Source: Candidatus Parcubacteria bacterium (GTDB lineage Bacteria; Patescibacteriota; Minisyncoccia; Sungbacterales; SURF-37). Taken from it: 64,000 nucleotides of DNA. Where the stretch lies: the NCBI GenBank assembly GCA_003599755.1, contig QZJO01000009.1, positions 86,140 through 150,139 of the forward strand, in the 5' to 3' direction. Below, piece after piece: positions 3,728 through 17,430 of this stretch. The translations under genes and the position numbers were made by a program. Numbering within the stretch: position 1 is the stretch's first letter; each line of letters begins with the position of its first letter. The notes beneath the pieces are model-generated. The model made no database searches and was not told the origin of the DNA. It was given only the letters and a program-made list of their open reading frames with translations.

Positions 3728-4387
3728 CTATGCGTGGGCTAGTTCTCTAATCGCCATCTTGGGACTCGGATGGCTGAAAATATAATTGCCGGCCACGAGC
3801 ATATTCGCACCGGCTCTGACGCACTCGCGGGCGATGGCCGGCGTGATACCGCCGTCCACTTCGATATTCGCTTTGGGAAACGCTTGGCGCAGATGTTTGA
3901 TTTTCGAAAGATTGTGCCGGTCGAATTCCTGCCCACCCTTGCCCGGCGGCACGGCGAGAATCTGCAACAGCGCGAGCCGGTCCGCGAACGGCTTGAGCGC
4001 AGTCCACGACGTTTGCGGCGCGACCGAAAACCCGAGCTCAATTCCGCTTTGCCGGCATTCTCGCGCGATAAGATCGAAATCATGCGTCACTTCGTAATGC
4101 ACGATTACCCGATGCACCGGTTTGATGAGCCAGGCCTCTATCCGCTCTTCGGGCCGGTCCTCCATGAGATGAATCTCGATATGGCATTTGGTCTGGAAAC
4201 CAACGAGATCCAAGGGTTGATGCCAGAGCGTATTGGGCGTGAACGTGCCATCAGCGACATCGAGATGCACCCAATCTACATATGGCTCCACGAGCCGGAT
4301 TTTTTTCACGGCCTCGTCCCAGGTTTCGGCATTGATGGCGGGGAGGATCTGAGCCATATCAACAATAGCCGTCTGCAAAATAATCAC
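3728..4387 (-). CDS. rpe: Ribulose-phosphate 3-epimerase.
   Basis: 219 aa. VHLDVADGTFTPN matches the RPE metal-binding signature; C-terminal GG.T...AG.N..VAG pattern present. Confidence 0.9.
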   Translation of the reverse strand: MIILQTAIVDMAQILPAINAETWDEAVKKIRLVEPYVDWVHLDVADGTFTPNTLWHQPLDLVGFQTKCHIEIHLMEDRPEERIEAWLIKPVHRVIVHYEVTHDFDLIARECRQSGIELGFSVAPQTSWTALKPFADRLALLQILAVPPGKGGQEFDRHNLSKIKHLRQAFPKANIEVDGGITPAIARECVRAGANMLVAGNYIFSHPSPKMAIRELAHA

Positions 4388-6148: not shown

Positions 6149-6916
6149 TCAGCGCGGTAATAGCGACGGTGAACGGGCCTCGATCAGCATCGCGCCGACC
6201 GATTGAGCAATAACGCTCGGCCATCGGAACGTGATGGACGCAGAATCGCCGGAGCGCAACTCTTCGAGTTCGCGCGCGTTGGCGGCGATGAGATTCCCCT
6301 GGGCGTCGAGGATCAGGACGTATACCGTCAAATCGCGCACCGCATCGAGCGATCGATTTTGCGCGATGGTCGTCACCTCGCTTTGCGGGAATCCGCGCAC
6401 GTCGGTAATGCCGTATGCGCGATTTCCCGCAACCACGTCCGGCCGCACGGCATCAACGACCATCCAATCGGCTTCGCCGATAACCAGATCAATCTGCCGG
6501 ACCGTATCATCCACCGGAATACCGAATTCCAAAAAATGCGCGGTTTCGCCGGGGTATAAATACGACTGGCCTTTGCGCGTGGCGAGCACCGCGCCCGCGG
6601 CATCAAAGAACCGGAATTCATAATTAACGCGTCGCGCTCCGACGCGGACATTCGGATTGCGGACTTCGGCCGCGGCATCCACGACGCCGGAGCGGCTCGG
6701 CACCGCGCGGGCCCAAAGCACCTCCACGGGTTTGCGGTTTTTCAGTTCACAGGGCGCGCATGATCCGCCGCAGTCCACTCCTTCTTCGTTCTGATTCCGC
6801 CGGCCGTCGGTGCAGGTCGCTTCCGAAATGCCCTGGAAAAATAAAAATCCGACGCCTGCCAGGATCACGGCCAGGATTGAAAACGCGATAAATTGCCGTT
6901 TTGTCCGATAATCCAT
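6149..6916 (-). CDS. Membrane-anchored hypothetical protein (single N-terminal TM, extracytoplasmic domain with a CGGSCAPC motif).
   Basis: Track ORF 6149..7000. The internal start MDYRTKRQF at 6916 is preceded by a strong SD (GAGGGGGATATGG), so it is preferred. Forms an operon-like pair with RodA. Confidence 0.5.
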   Translation of the reverse strand: MDYRTKRQFIAFSILAVILAGVGFLFFQGISEATCTDGRRNQNEEGVDCGGSCAPCELKNRKPVEVLWARAVPSRSGVVDAAAEVRNPNVRVGARRVNYEFRFFDAAGAVLATRKGQSYLYPGETAHFLEFGIPVDDTVRQIDLVIGEADWMVVDAVRPDVVAGNRAYGITDVRGFPQSEVTTIAQNRSLDAVRDLTVYVLILDAQGNLIAANARELEELRSGDSASITFRWPSVIAQSVGAMLIEARSPSLLPR

Positions 6917-6977
6917 ATCCCCCTCATCCGTATGCCTGGCTCCAGTATACCGGTTCTCGGCTCCGACCGGAACTTGC

Positions 6978-7011
6978 CGAAAACGAAAAATCCCCTCCAT
7001 CGAGGGGCTTC
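6978..7011 (-). terminator. Rho-independent terminator downstream of the 5S rRNA (end of the rRNA unit).
   Basis: Minus strand reads GCCCCTCGATGGAGGGG + ATTTTTCGTTTT. The perfect 6-bp GC stem CCCCTC/GAGGGG lies at 6993..7008, followed by a T-run. Confidence 0.7.
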
Positions 7012-7060
7012 GCGATTACCCAGCACCTCCCGCTTCTATTTAAAACACCGGAAATTTTGT

Positions 7061-7178
7061 ATGCTGGCCTACTCTACTTTCCCAGGGACGCAAGGTCCCA
7101 AGTATCATCGAGCCCCTGCGCTTTCACGGCTCTGTTCGGAATGGGAAGAGGTGGGACACGCAGGGATAAAAGACCAGC
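7061..7178 (-). rRNA. rrf: 5S ribosomal RNA.
   Basis: Reverse complement aligns to the bacterial 5S consensus (CCGAACAGAGCCGUGAAAGCGC...GGGAAAGUAGAGUAGGCCAGCAU) with terminal helix GCUGGUC/GGCCAGC. Confidence 0.85.
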
Positions 7179-7537
7179 AAACAAAATTTCCGGTGTTGGG
7201 GTTCGGAACCTACCCGCCTGTATTTTGCAAAGCAAAATTCTGGCGGGATCTGACAACATGCGCGGGCAAAACCAATTCGTGTCCCGCTTCGCGAGCCACC
7301 GCGGATGGTCGCGGATGAAACGCTGATCAGCGCAGATACGAGACCGTATCCGCGAAATCCGCGTAGGAATCCGCGTTAATCTGCGGCGTCTCACTATGTG
7401 AGACGCGTCGCCCCTTCGGGCGGGAGTACATCGGCCGATTAGTACCGCTCGGCTCAAGCGCTCACGCGCCATACACCTGCGGCCTATCAACGTGATCATC
7501 TCTCACGGGCCTGATAACGATACCTAATCTTGGGGTG

Positions 7538-7570
<33 letters not shown>

Positions 7571-7689
7571 CGTCCGAACATAGCTACCCAGCGATGCTCC
7601 TGGCGGAACAGCTGGTACACCAGAGGTTCGTTCATCCTGATCCTCTCGTACAAAGGACGACGCCCCGCAAGTATCAACGCCTGCAGTAG

Positions 7690-7983
7690 ATAGGAGACCA
7701 ACCTGTCTCACGCATCTACACGCGTATTCCTACGCGGATTGGACTATATCTTCATCCTTCCGCTCGCGCGGGATGGGATGGCTGACGTGTAGTCTCTACG
7801 GGCTCCGCAACAGTAAGCGGATTCCCTCGGTATTGTCCGGTCTGGATTCTACCGAAATCAGTCAGCTGGCCTCGCGATATTCCTACCGCGAGCCGCCGTG
7901 AATAATGTCTTAACCTCGGGCTCAAACCGTTCATGCGCCAATCATCCGTTTGATTGACATCGCGATGCGCGATTAGCGCATCA
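7690..7983 (-). mobile_element. ORF-less group I-type intron in 23S rRNA at the position equivalent to E. coli U2593 (peptidyl-transferase region).
   Basis: The conserved run GGGUU(U/C)A(G/A)A(A/C)CGU | CGUGAGACAG is interrupted by 294 nt. Exon 1 ends in U and the insert ends in G, as expected for group I splicing. Contains a hairpin CAAACCGTT...AACGGTTTG. Track ORFs inside it (e.g. 7752..7934) are non-coding. Confidence 0.6.
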
Positions 7984-8116
7984 ACGGTTTGAACCCAGCT
8001 CGCGTACCTTTTTAATGGGCGAACAGCCCAACGCTTGGGAGCTTCTCCACCCCCGCGCTAAGGTGAGCCGACATCGAGGTGCCGAACTGCGCCGTCGCTA
8101 TGGACGCTCGGGCGCA

Positions 8117-8156
<40 letters not shown>

Positions 8157-9551
8157 TTTGGCCTTGTTCTAGTAAGTAGCACATACCCACATCTCGACCC
8201 CGAAGGGTCGAAAAGTGAATACACACCATAGCCATCGGATCACTACGTTCTGCTTTCGCACCTGCTCGGAATGTCCTCCTCGCAGTCAAGCCGGCTTTTC
8301 CCGTTACAGGTCCAGCGCGATTTCCATCCGCGCTAAGCCGACCTTTAAACCCCTCCATTACGCTTTAGGAGGGTTCTGCCCCAGACAAACTGCCTGCCAA
8401 GCACTGTCTCGCCGGAGTTTTTTCTCCGACGGTTAGGACCTAAAGGTTTCCAGAGTGGTATTTCACTGACGGCTCCATCCCGGCCGAAACCGAAACTTCA
8501 ACGCCTCCCACCTATGCTACGCAAGAAACTTCTAGACCCAATACCAAGCTGCAGTAAAGCTCCCGGGGTCTTTTCGTCTAACTGCAGGTAACCGGCATCT
8601 TCACCGGTACTGTATTTTCACCGAGCTCCACGTGGAGACAGTCCTCCGATCGTTACGCCTTTCATGCGCTTCGGAACTTACCCGAAAAGGAATTGCGCTA
8701 CTTTAACACGGTTATAGTTACCGCGGACATTGACGAGGGCTTGGCACCTCATGCCGAACAACGTTGATATAATCTCGATCACTCGACAGAAATGATTAAC
8801 CTTCTCGCATTGGTCAGGCGTCACCCCCTATACATCCTCTTACGAGTTCGCAGGGAGCTGTGTTTTTGGTAAACAGTCGCCAGAGGTACTTTCGCTGCGG
8901 CCTCGATTCATCACCGAGGCAGGCCTTATCGCGAACTTACGGCCGCTTGTTTGCCTAGTTCCTTCACGTGGACTCACTCGTTCGCCTTGGTGCATTCACA
9001 CCAACCCACCAGTGTCGGTTTCCGGTACGGTTTCTTATTGGTTAACCCTAGAGGGTTTTCTGGGAAGCGTGCTCAGCGAGCTTATCCGAGAGTCGCCCCT
9101 CGGCGTTGCCCCGGCACTCGGGACCGAGCATTACCTCTGCCGGCGGATTTGCCTACCGGCGTCCCCTATGCCGCGGACGGAAATCCCTAATCCGCCTCGC
9201 GTACTACGCTCCGTCACCCCATCAGAACCAATCAGAAGTCACGGAATATTAACCGTGTGTCCATCGGCTGCGGCTTTCGCCATTGCCTTAGGCCCGACTA
9301 ACCCTTGGATGATTGCCATTGCCAAGGAAACCTTGGGTTTGCGGCGATTCCGACTTTCACGGAATTTGCGGTTACTTGTGCCAACATTCTCTCTTCCGTA
9401 CGCTCCAGAGCTCCTCACGGATGCTCCTTCATCGCAGAACGAAATGCTCCCCTACCACGCGCGTTCGACGAATCGAACGCGCATCCGTAGCTTCGGTACT
9501 ATGCTTAGCCCCGTTGAATCTTTGGCGCCGGATCTCTTGACGAGTGAGCTG

Positions 9552-9594
<43 letters not shown>

Positions 9595-10167
9595 CGCTGT
9601 CTCTGAAATCCGACCACCTTAACCACTGAGCATAGATTTAGGGACCTTAGCTGACGATCAACGGCTGTTTCCGTTGCGCACGACGGAGCTTAGCCCCCGC
9701 CTGCTGACTCCCGGAATAACGCCCCGCGCATTCGGAGTTTGATTGGTCGCCGCGGGTTTCCCCGCTAGCGACCATCCAGTAGCTCTACCTCGCGTGACGC
9801 GTGATCCGAGGCTAGTCCAAAAACTATTTCGGGGAGAACCAGCTATTTCCAGGTTCGATTAGCTTTTCACTCCGTACCACAGCTCATCCGAGAATTTTGC
9901 ACCATTCACCGGTTCGGACCTCCCCCCGATTTTCATCGGGGCTCATCCTGGCCATGGTAAGCTCACCTGGTTTCGGGTCTCATGAGTACTACTTATTGGA
10001 ATGTAGATTGTGGAGTGTCGTTTGTGGTTTCCCACATTCTATGTTCCACATTCTACAGTCCAATGACGCGCTATTCGCACTCGGTTTCCCTGTGACTCGG
10101 TGCCGTACGGCACTTAATCAGCAGTACTCAAGAACTCGTTGGCTCATTCTTCAATAGGCACGCCGTG

Positions 10168-10468
10168 GTCCGGCACCTTCTTAAGCATTATCGAGGTCAA
10201 TTCGCTTTTTTAGTTCAGCCCAACGTTTGCCGAACTGTTTCAGTTTCTGTTCTCTTCGTCTTGCAGCTCGTTCATCCCGGAAAGCCTCATAATATATAAG
10301 CTCCCAAGGAACGCCGGCTTTCGTAGCTCGGTTCAAACCTTCATTATGACCGGCTACGCGTTTTCGAAGATCAGCTGAAAATCCAATATAGTATCGCGAA
10401 TTGACAACACTTCTGAGAACGTACACGTAGTACATTTTCTCAATATAACGCACAAGAAGGTGCCGGAC
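10168..10468 (-). other. 23S rRNA intervening sequence (IVS) in the helix-25 region (E. coli ~545). A 15-bp perfect stem (GTCCGGCACCTTCTT / AAGAAGGTGCCGGAC) encloses a 270-nt low-GC loop carrying an ORF.
   Basis: 23S sequence is continuous outside the two arms (...GGAGUCGGAGUC | stem ... stem | CACGGCGUGCCUAUUGAAGAAUGAGCC...). Arms are 10168..10182 and 10454..10468. Loop GC ~45% versus rRNA ~55%. Confidence 0.65.
10181..10453 (-). CDS. GIY-YIG nuclease-family protein (YhbQ/UPF0213-like, 90 aa) encoded inside the 23S helix-25 IVS.
   Basis: YYVYVLRS...RYYIGFSADLRKRVAGHNEG...PWELIYYEAFRDERAARRREQKLK is the canonical GIY-YIG domain (GIY..YIG..R..H/E..N). GTG start at 10453 or ATG at 10435. Stop overlaps the stem arm. 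Confidence 0.7.
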   Translation of the reverse strand: MRYIEKMYYVYVLRSVVNSRYYIGFSADLRKRVAGHNEGLNRATKAGVPWELIYYEAFRDERAARRREQKLKQFGKRWAELKKRIDLDNA

Positions 10469-11646
10469 TCCGACTCCTTGTAGACATATGGTTTCAGGTA
10501 CTATTTCATCGCCCTCACCGGGCTGCTTTTCACCGTTCCCTCACGGTACTGGTTCACTATCGGTGACGAAGAGTATTTAGCGTTGGGTCTCTAGTCGACC
10601 CGGCTTCACGCGCAGTCGCCGAACGGCGCGTTACTCAAGAATAGATTCAGAAGGCATACGACCATTTTCGAATACGGGGCTATTACCGTCTTTGGCCCGC
10701 CGTTCCAGGCGAGTTCTTCTAATAGCCGCATGTACCTTCTCGGACCGAAGTCCGACGAATCCATCTTACAACCCCCAGCAATCCGGCTTGCGCCGAATCG
10801 ATAGGTTTGCGCTGCTCCCGTTTCGCTCGCCGCTACTCAGGGAATGGGAGTCACACAAATTGGTGAACTCATGTATGCCCACCAATTTGGGTAACTCTTT
10901 GTTTTCTCTTCCTCCGCTTACTGAGATGTTTCACTTCAGCGGGTTCGCTCTCACACGGTTTTACCCGTGGAGTCTCCGACTATTAAGTCAGAGGGGTTAC
11001 CCCATTCGGAAATCCCCGGATCAAAGGTTGCTCACCACCTCCCCGAGGCTTATCGCAGGCACGCCGCGTCCTTCATCGCCTCTTCATCCCGAGGCATCCA
11101 CCATACGCCCTTGTTTGCACTCCCACCCGATTGGGTGAAAGGTTCTGCCCGCACATGTTGTCAGATATTACTTCGTATTTTGTTTTCAACGTTCGGTCAG
11201 TCCGCGTTGCCACCGTACCGGATGTCCGTATCGAACCGCGGTTCGGTCCGGGCATCTGCCACGATCGCACGAAAAAAGGCCGCTCGAGCGGCCCCAGGGG
11301 TCGACGCACGCTGGAAAGCAGCCGCCTATTCCCGAAGGGCCATTGAAATGCCGTATGTGAGAGCTTCACGCATGTTGTTCCTATTATAGGGATATCGCCG
11401 CACGCGTCAAGAGGCCGAAAAGTGGGCTTCATCCACTGTTCACCCCCACACTCATTACGGCAACATTTCCATCCCTATGTATGAAGGCGGGGGGGGTGCG
11501 TCCGCGTTGATTCTGCCCTGCAGTCATGCGCGATGCAGCGCTTCGCGTTCTTGCGCAATGAGGGCGAGGGTTAATTCGACTTCCTCCCAAATACAAACTC
11601 CCTCGGCATTGCCGGGGGAGTTTGTTCTCTGGTTCGCAAGCGGATC

Positions 11647-15466: not shown

Positions 15467-15476
15467 CGCGTTTTTT
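15449..15476 (+). terminator. Rho-independent terminator of efp.
   Basis: CGCGTCAGC-AAGG-GCTGACGCG followed by TTTTTT. The stem overlaps the efp stop codon. Also lies at the 3' end of the convergent ATPase gene. Confidence 0.8.
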
Positions 15477-17430
15477 AATCCAATCGGATTACCTCGCCCG
15501 GCGCCATCGCACTTCCACGCGGTGCGGCCGGTTCTTTTTTTCTCGGCCGCGATTCGATTGCGGGCGGCGGCGCAGCGATATCTTTCTCGTTCGATCGCGG
15601 CGGCATTTGCGCTGCCGGAACGCTCGCGGCGGCAGGGATTTTTTTCTCGCGCGGCTGATCGCCATTCATCGCCTCCGCAAGCGCCTTGCGCAGCTCCCCG
15701 AGATGATGCGCGGAGCGGCTTGCGTCGGCCTGCTTTGACTGATCGGAGCGCCGTTCGGACTCGCGCGCCGGCGCGGCCGGGCGAAGTTCTTTCAGCGACA
15801 ATGGTTTGGCGTCGCGCCGCGCGTTTCGATCGCGGCCGCCCTGCGGCCGCTCCCCTTGTTTTGCGGCAGAAGCGGACGCGGAAGATGTCGGAGCAGCACC
15901 GGTCGGCGCTGCCGCATCGGTTGGCGCGGTAGCGCCGTCGGCCATCTGGGAACGAAATTGGATCAAGTGCATATGTTCCTCGCAAAATACCGGCCGCTTG
16001 CCGTCGGGTTTGAACGGCACCAGGATCGACTTCTGGTCCACGGCGCATTTGGCCTCGTACATCGGCCGATCGGGTTTAGCCGCGGCAGCGCCGGCTGAGC
16101 GCAAGCCCGCGCCCGGAACCGCTTCAAAGCCGCCCAACGTGAATTCGCGAATCTTTTCCTCGACCTGGGCGCGCGGCGCGCTGTAGTGCTCCCGCGAGTA
16201 TTGAACAATCTCTTTGACGAAGGACTGCGCCGGCGTCGGCATCGGCGGCAGGGTCTCGGCCGAAAACGGCCGAGACGTCAGCCCGTCGATCATGAGTTTG
16301 AGATACACTTGCTTGAACCCGAGGTTAACGAGGTCCTGGACCATGAATTCGGGCATGAATTCTTTTTCCAAGAGTTCCGCATCTTCGGCGCCGATACGGA
16401 ACGTAATCATCGTACCGACGTTGCCGAAGATGGCATGCTGCACCTCCTCTTCCATTTGCGCAATGTATTGATGCGCAACGGTCAGGTTGAGACGGTACTT
16501 GCGCGCCTCGGACAAGATGTTTGCGAAGGACTCGGTGGCGAAGTTCTGGAACTCGTCGACGTAGAGGTAGAAATCTTTACGCTCGGGTTCGGGGATATCC
16601 ACGCGGCTCATGGCGGTAAGATACAATTTCGCCACCATCATGGCGCCCAAGAGCCGCGAATTCTCCTCGCCGATGTTCCCTTTCGAAAGATTTACGATGA
16701 AAATCTTCTGCTCATCCATGATGGCCCGCATATCCAGGGACGTCTCGACTTGGCCGATGACGTTGCGGATCAGCGGATTGCCGGAAAACTGGCCGATCTT
16801 GTTCTGAATCGCGGCCACGGCCTCGCGCATGTATTGCTCCGGATACTTGGCGAATTCGTTTTCCCAAAAACCCCGGATGACCGGATCGGTCAGCTGCGCC
16901 ACGATCTGGCGCCGGAATTCCTTTTCGCCGAACATGCGATTCACGGATAACAGCGTCGAGCCCTTTACTTGCAGCAGTGCGAGAATGGCATTGGCCAGAA
17001 GGTACTCCATGCGCGCGGACCAAACCTCCGGCCCGAAAATCTTTTTGAACACGCTCAAAAGGCCCGAGGTAATCAGATGTCGTTGGTCCTCGGCCACGGC
17101 TTCCATGACATTGAACGCCATCGGATATTCGATATCCACCGGATTGAAATACACAACGTCCTTGATGCGGTGCTCGGGCACAAATTGGAGCACCCGCTCG
17201 GCGTATTCGCCGTGCGGGTCCACGACCGCGACGCCATGACCGGCTTGGATATCCTGGATGGTCATGTTTTCCAGAAGCGTGGACTTGCCCATGCCGGTCT
17301 TTCCGATGATATAGACGTGCTTGCGTCGATCGCCGCGTTGGATGCCAAATCGCCGCCGCTGGCCGCGGAAGTTCGTCTCGCCAAAAAAGGTGATGTCTTT
17401 GTCGGATGCTCTGCCGTCCATGGATGGCAT
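15475..17430 (-). CDS. HerA/FtsK/VirD4-superfamily P-loop ATPase (DUF87/AAA_10 N-terminal domain plus TraG-D_C-like C-terminal module), with a low-complexity Ala/Pro/Arg-rich tail.
   Basis: Walker A YIIGKTGMGKSTLL; DUF87 hallmark VVDPHGEY; Walker B LYVDEFQNF; LTVAHQYIAQMEEEVQHAIFGNVGTMITFRIGAEDAELLEKEF resembles the TraD/TraG C-terminal motif. No TM segments. Confidence 0.7.
   Translation of the reverse strand: MPSMDGRASDKDITFFGETNFRGQRRRFGIQRGDRRKHVYIIGKTGMGKSTLLENMTIQDIQAGHGVAVVDPHGEYAERVLQFVPEHRIKDVVYFNPVDIEYPMAFNVMEAVAEDQRHLITSGLLSVFKKIFGPEVWSARMEYLLANAILALLQVKGSTLLSVNRMFGEKEFRRQIVAQLTDPVIRGFWENEFAKYPEQYMREAVAAIQNKIGQFSGNPLIRNVIGQVETSLDMRAIMDEQKIFIVNLSKGNIGEENSRLLGAMMVAKLYLTAMSRVDIPEPERKDFYLYVDEFQNFATESFANILSEARKYRLNLTVAHQYIAQMEEEVQHAIFGNVGTMITFRIGAEDAELLEKEFMPEFMVQDLVNLGFKQVYLKLMIDGLTSRPFSAETLPPMPTPAQSFVKEIVQYSREHYSAPRAQVEEKIREFTLGGFEAVPGAGLRSAGAAAAKPDRPMYEAKCAVDQKSILVPFKPDGKRPVFCEEHMHLIQFRSQMADGATAPTDAAAPTGAAPTSSASASAAKQGERPQGGRDRNARRDAKPLSLKELRPAAPARESERRSDQSKQADASRSAHHLGELRKALAEAMNGDQPREKKIPAAASVPAAQMPPRSNEKDIAAPPPAIESRPRKKEPAAPRGSAMAPGEVIRLD

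Follow-up and report, generated by a model that had tools for sequence, protein, structure and literature searches.

A 299-nucleotide insert in helix 25 of a Parcubacteria 23S rRNA gene as a probable copy of a small, hairpin-bounded GIY-YIG element

The 23S rRNA gene in a 64,000-nucleotide stretch of contig QZJO01000009.1 (positions 86,140 to 150,139; the window, below, is this whole stretch) is interrupted at helix 25 by a 299-nucleotide insert containing an open reading frame (ORF) of the GIY-YIG nuclease type. The host is a Parcubacteria bacterium from the candidate phyla radiation (CPR). The SecA protein encoded in the window is 100% identical to one recorded for 'Candidatus Parcubacteria bacterium', and Sungbacteria come next in similarity. 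Intervening sequences (IVSs) have been known in bacterial rRNA since about 1990. The insert described here is probably one copy of a family of tiny, hairpin-bounded, transposon-like elements, related in kind to the Ssn/NTS system of nucleases and repeats, with terminal repeats that probably double as an RNase III stem. The probability of this reading as a whole is put at about 0.6, its weakest parts being the inferred excision by RNase III and the predicted activity of the protein. The host gene and the parts of the insert are as follows.

7418..11126, minus strand: 23S rRNA gene (host gene), RF02541, 2296 bits, full length
10169..10467, minus strand: the element (IVS), TCCGGCACCTTCTT ... AAGAAGGTGCCGGA, 299 nucleotides, at the apex of 23S helix 25
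10453..10468, minus strand: closing stem, 5' arm, RNA sense GUCCGGCACCUUCUUG, from the fold; the left inverted repeat is 10454..10467
10168..10183, minus strand: closing stem, 3' arm, UAAGAAGGUGCCGGAC, from the fold; the right inverted repeat is 10169..10182; the arm holds the TAA stop codon (10181..10183)
10445..10451, minus strand: inner stem extension, 5' strand GCGUUAU, from the fold; pairs with 10185..10191 and is kept in L088, L095 and L002
10185..10191, minus strand: inner stem extension, 3' strand AUAAUGC, from the fold; within the final codons of the ORF
10471..10474, minus strand: base of host helix 25, 5' strand GUCG, from the fold; corresponds in alignment to the E. coli helix 25 base
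10162..10165, minus strand: base of host helix 25, 3' strand CGGC, from the fold
10181..10435, minus strand: ORF with stop codon, 84-residue single-domain GIY-YIG protein, MYYVYVLRS...YYIGFSADLRKRVAGHNEG...YYEAF...RREQKLK..., ATG at 10435

The placement at helix 25, proposed in a first-pass annotation of this DNA, is borne out by two alignments. In the covariance-model alignment, a long insert stands at the hairpin apex after model position 583, following ...ACAAGGAGUCGGAGUCCG. In a MAFFT alignment with E. coli rrlH, 278+7 extra bases lie between E. coli 540 and 555, that is, in helix 25. The plus-strand stem arms (GTCCGGCACCTTCTT at 10168..10182 and AAGAAGGTGCCGGAC at 10454..10468) are exactly as first quoted. 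They belong to a long closing stem of the RNase III type: in the RNA fold, 16 base pairs (bp; 15 Watson-Crick and one G·U) are followed by a one-base bulge and 7 more pairs, so that the stem reaches about 24 bp in total. Below the insert, what remains of the native helix 25 base is four base pairs plus a 2x2 internal loop. The predicted energy of the fold is -129.9 kcal/mol (z = -7.1 relative to shuffled sequences). The loop has a lower GC content than the rRNA, as had also been noted (loop: 43.5%, 299-nucleotide element: 44.8%, remaining 23S: 54.4%), and apart from the stem and a 17-nucleotide leader it is ORF throughout. The insert thus has the traits of an IVS: a position at the apex of helix 25, a long duplex suitable for RNase III and a sporadic presence among related 23S genes. 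No group I or group II intron model matches over the insert region.

The ORF was first described as a 90-residue GIY-YIG protein. The domain is genuine: the longer frame (10181..10453, 90 amino acids from a GTG) matches Pfam GIY-YIG (PF01541; E-value: 2.6e-16; 60.1 bits against a cut-off of 22.6). The start is not, and the conserved ATG gives 84 amino acids. The GTG at 10453 was rejected as a start codon because it is out of frame or absent in the same-site relative L088 and because the homologues all start with M-[YF]-Y-V-Y. The residues Y5, G18, R26, H30 and E62 do not vary in an alignment of 44 sequences, and Y16 shows a conservation of at least 90%. Compared with its 87%-identical relative, the gene has 30 synonymous and 13 non-synonymous differences (dN/dS 0.08), and dN/dS is 0.05-0.14 across all computable pairs. 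Judged by these substitution patterns, the ORF is under purifying selection. The 3' arm of the stem includes the stop codon, in the window copy as in most family members.

The AlphaFold2 model of the protein (pLDDT 91.9) has a beta-beta-alpha-beta-alpha-alpha fold. Down to an E-value of 0.17, Foldseek finds GIY-YIG proteins only: UPF0213 BH0048, the Slx1 nuclease domain (TM 0.64-0.68; root-mean-square deviation 2.2-3 Å) and the I-TevI catalytic domain. By sequence, the best match of solved structure is BH0048 (1zg2; E-value: 2.4e-4), followed by EF2693 (E-value: 0.17), with weak identity (28-35%). No NCBIfam family-level model matches the 84-residue protein. The earlier label 'YhbQ-like' is therefore a fair one for the predicted fold class (the UPF0213/YhbQ/Slx1 type, with 1zg2 and Slx1 as the best solved matches), but family membership is not demonstrated. 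The protein has one domain only, with no DNA-binding domain, and appears to be an intact, working GIY-YIG nuclease whose activity is predicted.

The same insert occurs at the same site on eight independent metagenome contigs from other samples (L088-L095). These contigs are short, collinear with the window 23S and 78-84% identical to it, and the nearest relatives of the ORF (87% and 67% identical) sit on them. In these same-site relatives the closing pair U-A is replaced by C-G, a compensatory change. Because eight collinear contigs from other samples carry it, the insert was inherited within a clade and is not an assembly chimera, a possibility named in the first-pass annotation as one that would refute it.

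Helix 25 is also occupied in Porticoccus sp. W117, a cultured gammaproteobacterium (L076 3461..3742). The ORF of that insert encodes a 79-residue GIY-YIG protein (48% identical) and lies within a 22-bp stem (GCCCCGCTACTTAATCATTCTG / CAGAGTGATTAAGTAGCGGGGT) whose 3' arm contains the stop codon.

The comparison with IVS-free 23S genes that had been suggested reveals a reciprocal arrangement. The insert is absent from E. coli and from L003, where helix 25 is short and intact (GGAGTTGCGGCCCGCAAGGGTTGCAGCG) and an element instead follows E. coli position ~1535; in the window 23S, helix 25 is occupied and the ~1535 site is empty. Five copies were aligned: that of the window, two same-site relatives, L002 (the other 23S site, 70% identical) and L004 (64% identical), which lies between an HSP20 gene and a prenyltransferase gene. 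Homology among the five begins exactly at TCCGGCACC and stops exactly at GGTGCCGGA, and the flanks are unrelated.

The sharp ends coincide with the stem, which was searched for by pairing the 90 nucleotides upstream of each homologue's start against the 3' end of the ORF and the downstream sequence. A contiguous helix of at least 14 bp surrounds the ORF in 46 of 86 non-duplicate loci (at least 18 bp in 33 of 86). In 34 of the 86, both arms carry the core CCNNCAC(C/T), with the consensus (C/T)CCCGCACCTTTT; the window variant is TCCGGCACCTTCTT. In a set of 31 elements, all positions from the element's outermost base to the end of the 13-bp core are paired in 100% of cases and inner positions in at least 88%; in the three columns outside the element the figure drops to 32-52%. 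Changes on both sides of the helix are found in 12 of 17 element pairs, and the covariation score is 0.554 (0.168 in shuffles, at most 0.114 when partner columns are slid).

Among the mismatches in the stem, G·T occurs 26 times and A·C never (p = 3e-8). Because of this asymmetry, the hairpin is judged to be selected on the ORF-sense strand, either as RNA or as sense-strand single-stranded DNA (ssDNA); the 26:0 ratio fits recognition of a single strand and does not distinguish between the two. Elements whose proteins are only 45-55% identical nevertheless keep the sequence of the outer 12 bp, a constancy for which RNase III alone gives no explanation. The stem, first described as one of the RNase III type, is on these alignments no rRNA helix that chances to flank the ORF. 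It is the element's own conserved terminal inverted repeat, with sharp ends, and accompanies the ORF at unrelated sites.

Those sites were assigned by flank inspection and Rfam. BLAST against 23S alone leaves 72 of 80 loci outside 23S, and the flanks and Rfam put many of these in 16S or RNase P RNA genes. The ORF-bearing copies in and beside RNA genes are distributed as follows.

23S rRNA, E. coli ~270-290: L036, L037, L077; between E. coli 262 and 419: L072
23S rRNA, helix 25: the window clade and Porticoccus sp. W117 (L076)
23S rRNA, E. coli ~1535: L002/L003; ~1870: L066/L068; ~2400-2418: L071
16S rRNA, V1: L011, L015, L055; V2: L010, L019, L034
16S rRNA, hairpin between GGGAAGA and TGACGGTACC: L023, L039, L085; 3' region: L032
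RNase P RNA, replacing P3, right before GAGGAAAGUCCG: L009, L024, L142
RNase P RNA, right before ACAGAAUCCGGC: L013, L027, L096
rRNA-operon spacer, after the 16S gene: L012

There are at least five sites in 23S, four in 16S and two in RNase P RNA, in addition to the rRNA spacer and intergenic DNA. All 26 copies within RNA genes, at no fewer than 12 distinct sites, are in the sense orientation relative to the host RNA. A further 12 core-repeat copies lie elsewhere. The record titles are mostly of Patescibacteria, with some metagenome-assembled genomes (MAGs) labelled, as deposited, Bdellovibrionales, Gammaproteobacteria, Omnitrophota or Nanoarchaeota.

Five of the split RNase P RNA genes (L009, L013, L027, L096, L142) score 55-85 bits against a curated threshold of 100, and standard annotation would miss them because of these low scores. 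L142, from Hainich groundwater, is an RNase P RNA gene (6373..7200, minus strand; RF00010; E-value: 6.8e-22) with four copies of the repeat family, and it falls under the curated score because the gene is split. An ORF-bearing element (6875..7173) stands in place of P3, and ORF-less hairpins lie at 6404..6456, 6574..6615 and 6756..6800.

Two further loci have unusual arrangements. In a Pseudomonadales MAG (OZ239982; L066/L068, 1911..4571), both rRNA operons have three 23S inserts: one of ~200 nucleotides at helix 25, one of ~470 nucleotides at helix 45 with a four-helix-bundle ORF (PF05635; E-value: 1.6e-29), and one of ~700 nucleotides near E. coli 1870 with a GIY-YIG ORF and a different, perfect 24-bp stem, followed by tandem repeats. 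In L022 (3975..4343), a GIY-YIG element lies immediately upstream of a tRNA gene (4272..4343) and is flanked by a 12-13-nucleotide direct repeat of the tRNA 5' end (CGCCCATAGTCC); the direct repeats at other copies are just 4-5 nucleotides long.

The same ends also occur without an ORF. A metagenome scan for CCCGCACCTTTT, 0-30 bases and AAAAGGTGCGGG found ORF-less hairpins in at least 120 stretches, compared with ~0.1 expected by chance. Among 80 of these loci, the loop is 1-29 nucleotides long and 78 lie outside 16S and 23S by BLAST. Rfam, applied to 18 ORF-less loci, places hairpins in RNase P RNA (L141 96..143) and in group I introns (L097 528..559, L127 1786..1813), one of which is itself within a 16S gene. 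Hairpins also lie next to or between tRNA genes in two of the 18 (L120 228..259, L153 1112..1148). Conserved terminal repeats with sharp ends, together with ORF-less copies that have the same ends, are traits of inverted-repeat transposons.

Short direct repeats flank many copies outside the stable RNA genes. They abut 25 of 77 unique ORF-less hairpins (4-6 nucleotides: TTTA, TAAA, TCAA, TTGA, TTATA; null 4.6%) and are found at 7 of 12 ORF-bearing copies outside RNA genes (4-6 bp; null 3.6%). The 'CCGG' direct repeats of window-type copies were discarded as an artefact of the palindromic CCGG within the repeat. At L026, L029, L045, L152 and L158, the direct repeats are TTGA followed by C(A/T), and the right flank reads TTGACA or TTGACT, which resembles a -35 box. 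Such flanks could reflect a target preference or a promoter rebuilt by insertion.

The insert could instead be a static helix 25 IVS with a passenger ORF, its stem being a lineage-specific extension of helix 25 that is cut by RNase III, and would then not be mobile in its own right. IVSs are classically found at helix 25 (PMC11270868), the insert was inherited with the 23S gene in its clade at ~80% identity, and the window has a single copy with no flanking duplication. Such an IVS would not, however, be expected as the same repeat-ORF-repeat unit, with near-identical ends and a 64-70% identical protein, at the L002/L003 site and in intergenic DNA (L004) between unrelated flanks, nor would its repeat consensus be common to copies in the 16S and RNase P RNA genes of other lineages. 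This explanation is considered improbable.

Retention of the insert in the mature 23S rRNA, as an expansion segment on the ribosome surface with any protein made from the precursor, likewise seems a poor prospect. Long inserts can be accommodated at this position, given that eukaryotic helix 25 bears the large expansion segment ES7. The strong purifying selection on the ORF, in contrast, means that it must be translated, which is hard to square with burial in a ribosome. A perfect duplex of ~24 bp also satisfies the requirement of RNase III, and a retained 300-nucleotide loop is less plausible in P3 of RNase P RNA or in 16S hairpins, where other copies lie.

A mobile, homing-like origin had been suggested at first, and of this the mobility is supported. 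A free-standing homing endonuclease gene would cut IVS-less helix 25 rDNA, and the insert would be copied in by break repair. GIY-YIG enzymes do include homing endonucleases, the I-TevI catalytic domain is among the structural matches, and the helix 25 site is occupied even in the distant host Porticoccus sp. W117. Homing endonucleases of the I-TevI type, however, combine a catalytic with a DNA-binding domain and have one conserved target, usually within a self-splicing intron or an intein, and the element has neither trait: its 84-residue protein lacks a DNA-binding domain, and the copies occupy at least 12 sites in four kinds of host sequence with unrelated flanks. Flanking direct repeats and ORF-less derivatives do not fit homing either. 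Taken together, these traits resemble transposition more than site-specific homing, which is accordingly rated very improbable.

Two further explanations can be set aside: a group I or II intron with an endonuclease ORF, since no intron model matches a loop that is nearly all ORF and all GIY-YIG ORFs reported in PMC11270868 likewise lie in non-intron insertions, even though a group I intron exists elsewhere in the same 23S gene (7720..7984); and an assembly chimera or spurious ORF, since rRNA genes do assemble poorly in metagenomes but the eight independent contigs, the Pfam E-value and the dN/dS of 0.08 all contradict it.

The bare finding of a GIY-YIG ORF in an IVS is not new, because such ORFs have been reported in non-intron insertions of CPR 16S and 23S genes (Tsurumaki et al. 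2024, PMC11270868). The first-pass view that IVS ORFs are solely of the four-helix-bundle family, and that a nuclease ORF is unusual there, is outdated for the same reason. The insertions described there are at several scattered and poorly conserved sites, spread by homing is judged not to have occurred, and sites matching known IVS positions (23IS2, 23IS4) mostly have short ORF-less inserts (PMC11270868). The window insert shares with them the host group and the GIY-YIG ORF in a non-intron rRNA insertion. Reference 2 of that paper is presumably Brown et al. 2015. The terms 'inverted repeat' and 'hairpin' are absent from the text of that paper, and what was retrieved of it makes no mention of conserved ends common to the insertions, of copies between genes or in RNase P RNA, of derivatives that lack the ORF, of duplications at the flanks or of pairing specific to one strand, as presented here (PMC11270868).

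Classical IVSs, which are excised by RNase III at helices 25 and 45, have the same site, a long closing stem, a sporadic distribution and an ORF in the sense of the rRNA. Those with the 23S_rRNA_IVP family (PF05635) differ in the ORF. A further difference is that the present stem keeps its very sequence from one site and host gene to another. Both kinds meet in the Pseudomonadales 23S gene of L066, which has a PF05635 ORF in helix 45 and also carries a GIY-YIG element.

The closest parallel is Ssn, a 94-residue single-domain GIY-YIG protein that binds a hairpin repeat in ssDNA and cuts beside it, and whose genes are flanked by repeats (Chenal et al. 2025, PMC11893778). The insertion-sequence-like layout of these genes has already been remarked on by its authors (PMC11893778). 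The catalytic spacing is the same (Y5/Y16/E62 here, Y6/Y17/E64 in SsnA), and both proteins are single domains (84 and 94 residues). The NTS repeat of Ssn (ATTCCCGCG...CGCGGGAAT) shares the core CCCGC/GCGGG with the element, and those repeats also occur alone in many copies. The Ssn gene, in contrast, stands between two complete short hairpins, whereas the gene here is inside one long hairpin, with half on each side. Also unlike Ssn, the hosts here are mostly CPR bacteria and stable RNA genes contain copies; the main text of PMC11893778 uses neither 'rRNA' nor '23S' as a term.

Other systems are similar in part. REP/RAYT and IS200/IS605, the single-strand 'peel and paste' elements, likewise have a small nuclease gene between hairpin repeats, abundant ORF-less hairpins and strand-specific recognition (PMC11893778). 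The solved structures that best match the window protein belong to UPF0213/COG2827 (YhbQ, BH0048) and to the Slx1 domain. To our knowledge, proteins of these two groups are neither bracketed by hairpins nor resident in rRNA genes. The RAYT and IS200/IS605 enzymes are HUH/Y1 transposases, not GIY-YIG proteins; we know of no target duplications made by these two systems and of no copies in rRNA. No paper on bacterial miniature elements of the GIY-YIG type, or on bacterial RNase P RNA with a GIY-YIG insert, came up in full-text searches, whose incomplete coverage makes this absence of evidence only. An element-owned stem at many sites, ORF-less copies and flanking direct repeats outside RNA genes appear to be undescribed so far.

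The proposed model for the element is as follows. It consists of an inverted repeat, a short leader, the 84-residue GIY-YIG gene and a stop codon in the right repeat. In the 23S precursor, the two repeats would anneal to form ~24 bp of duplex above the base of helix 25. By analogy with other bacterial IVSs, host RNase III would cut this duplex and remove the loop, and the repeats probably double as its processing stem. The 23S rRNA would be left as pieces of ~658 and ~2485 nucleotides (the latter minus the intron at 7720..7984) that stay joined within the ribosome. Cleavage would, in addition, free an RNA of ~270 nucleotides with paired ends, which could serve as the mRNA for the nuclease, so that the element would need no promoter of its own; no promoter-like site was found inside the insert, and one is present upstream of the 23S gene. 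If it acts like Ssn, the nuclease would recognise the conserved hairpin in ssDNA, cut beside it and so move or maintain the element. More speculatively, heavily transcribed RNA genes may expose their sense strand as ssDNA that folds like the RNA, which would account for the sites at helix tips, the sense orientation, the high share of copies in stable RNA genes and the bias among the wobble pairs.

Several observations weigh against the element family and this model. About half of the protein's relatives have no long flanking stem. The regular expression by which the 34 core-repeat loci were chosen already dictates 5 of the 13 consensus positions. Only one copy is present in the window, which has no ORF-less hairpin with that copy's repeat variant. 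None of the copies inside stable RNA genes, the window copy included, has a flanking duplication, and because of this their route of entry may differ from that of intergenic copies. The published Ssn-related motif (SRM) pattern has no match within 300 nucleotides of any of the 86 ORFs. No vehicle was found: phage and plasmid collections contain no relatives of the protein, and viral contigs contain no full-length element. A signature of RNase III was not found in the 64-kb window, which is uninformative for a piece of that size. Finally, GIY-YIG enzymes are not known to us to join DNA, and we know of no GIY-YIG transposase.

A bolder joint reading is possible but is advanced only tentatively, at less than even odds. 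The insert would be an autonomous element of ~300 bp, among the smallest known, with an 84-residue GIY-YIG nuclease as its sole protein and with ORF-less derivatives of 25-55 bp. It would move via ssDNA and be retained mainly at the tips of helices in stable RNA genes with heavy transcription (23S, 16S, RNase P RNA, group I introns). Its ends would form an RNase III stem, through which the host RNA is spared and the mRNA set free. If this is true, at least one class of bacterial rRNA IVS consists of transposon insertions of an Ssn-like hairpin-nuclease system.

For one class of IVS, the probable element family would give the question of origin a concrete answer, in that a self-contained element, traceable across 23S, 16S, RNase P RNA and intergenic DNA, has the stem as its end. 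It would also join two literatures that are silent on each other here, those on CPR rRNA insertions and on Ssn/NTS repeats, and it predicts a cognate pair of enzyme and hairpin. Such elements would help to explain why CPR rRNA and RNase P RNA genes are so frequently interrupted, and they are a warning that covariance-model scans at curated thresholds overlook genes split in this way.

The host 23S gene is 3709 nucleotides long (model length: 2925) and carries several other insertions. A group I intron without an ORF (7720..7984, minus strand) is at the E. coli 2593 (I-CreI) site; it scores 48.9 bits with RF00028, just below the curated 50 (E-value: 1.7e-11), and appears as a 274-nucleotide insert in the large-subunit rRNA alignment. 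Four more insertions of 48-70 nucleotides relative to E. coli (10852..10899, 10746..10805, 9996..10065 and 8171..8225, minus strand) follow E. coli positions 226, 272, 652 and 2406, respectively, in the alignment with rrlH. None of the four contains the window's repeat sequence. The last is in the region where the CPR 23S gene of L071 holds a GIY-YIG element.

Two other features accompany the 23S gene.

7062..7178, minus strand: 5S rRNA gene, downstream partner of the 23S gene
11383..11410, minus strand: promoter-like site, near-consensus (TTGACG-16-TATAAT), ~260-285 nucleotides upstream of the 23S gene

No 16S gene or tRNA gene was found alongside the 23S-5S unit within the 64-kb window, which makes the rRNA genes unlinked. 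Among ORFs without a Pfam match, a few kb away from this unit, is one (15475..17430, minus strand) with weak matches to domains of type IV secretion coupling proteins and HerA-like ATPases (TrwB_AAD_bind, T4SS-DNA_transf, DUF87).

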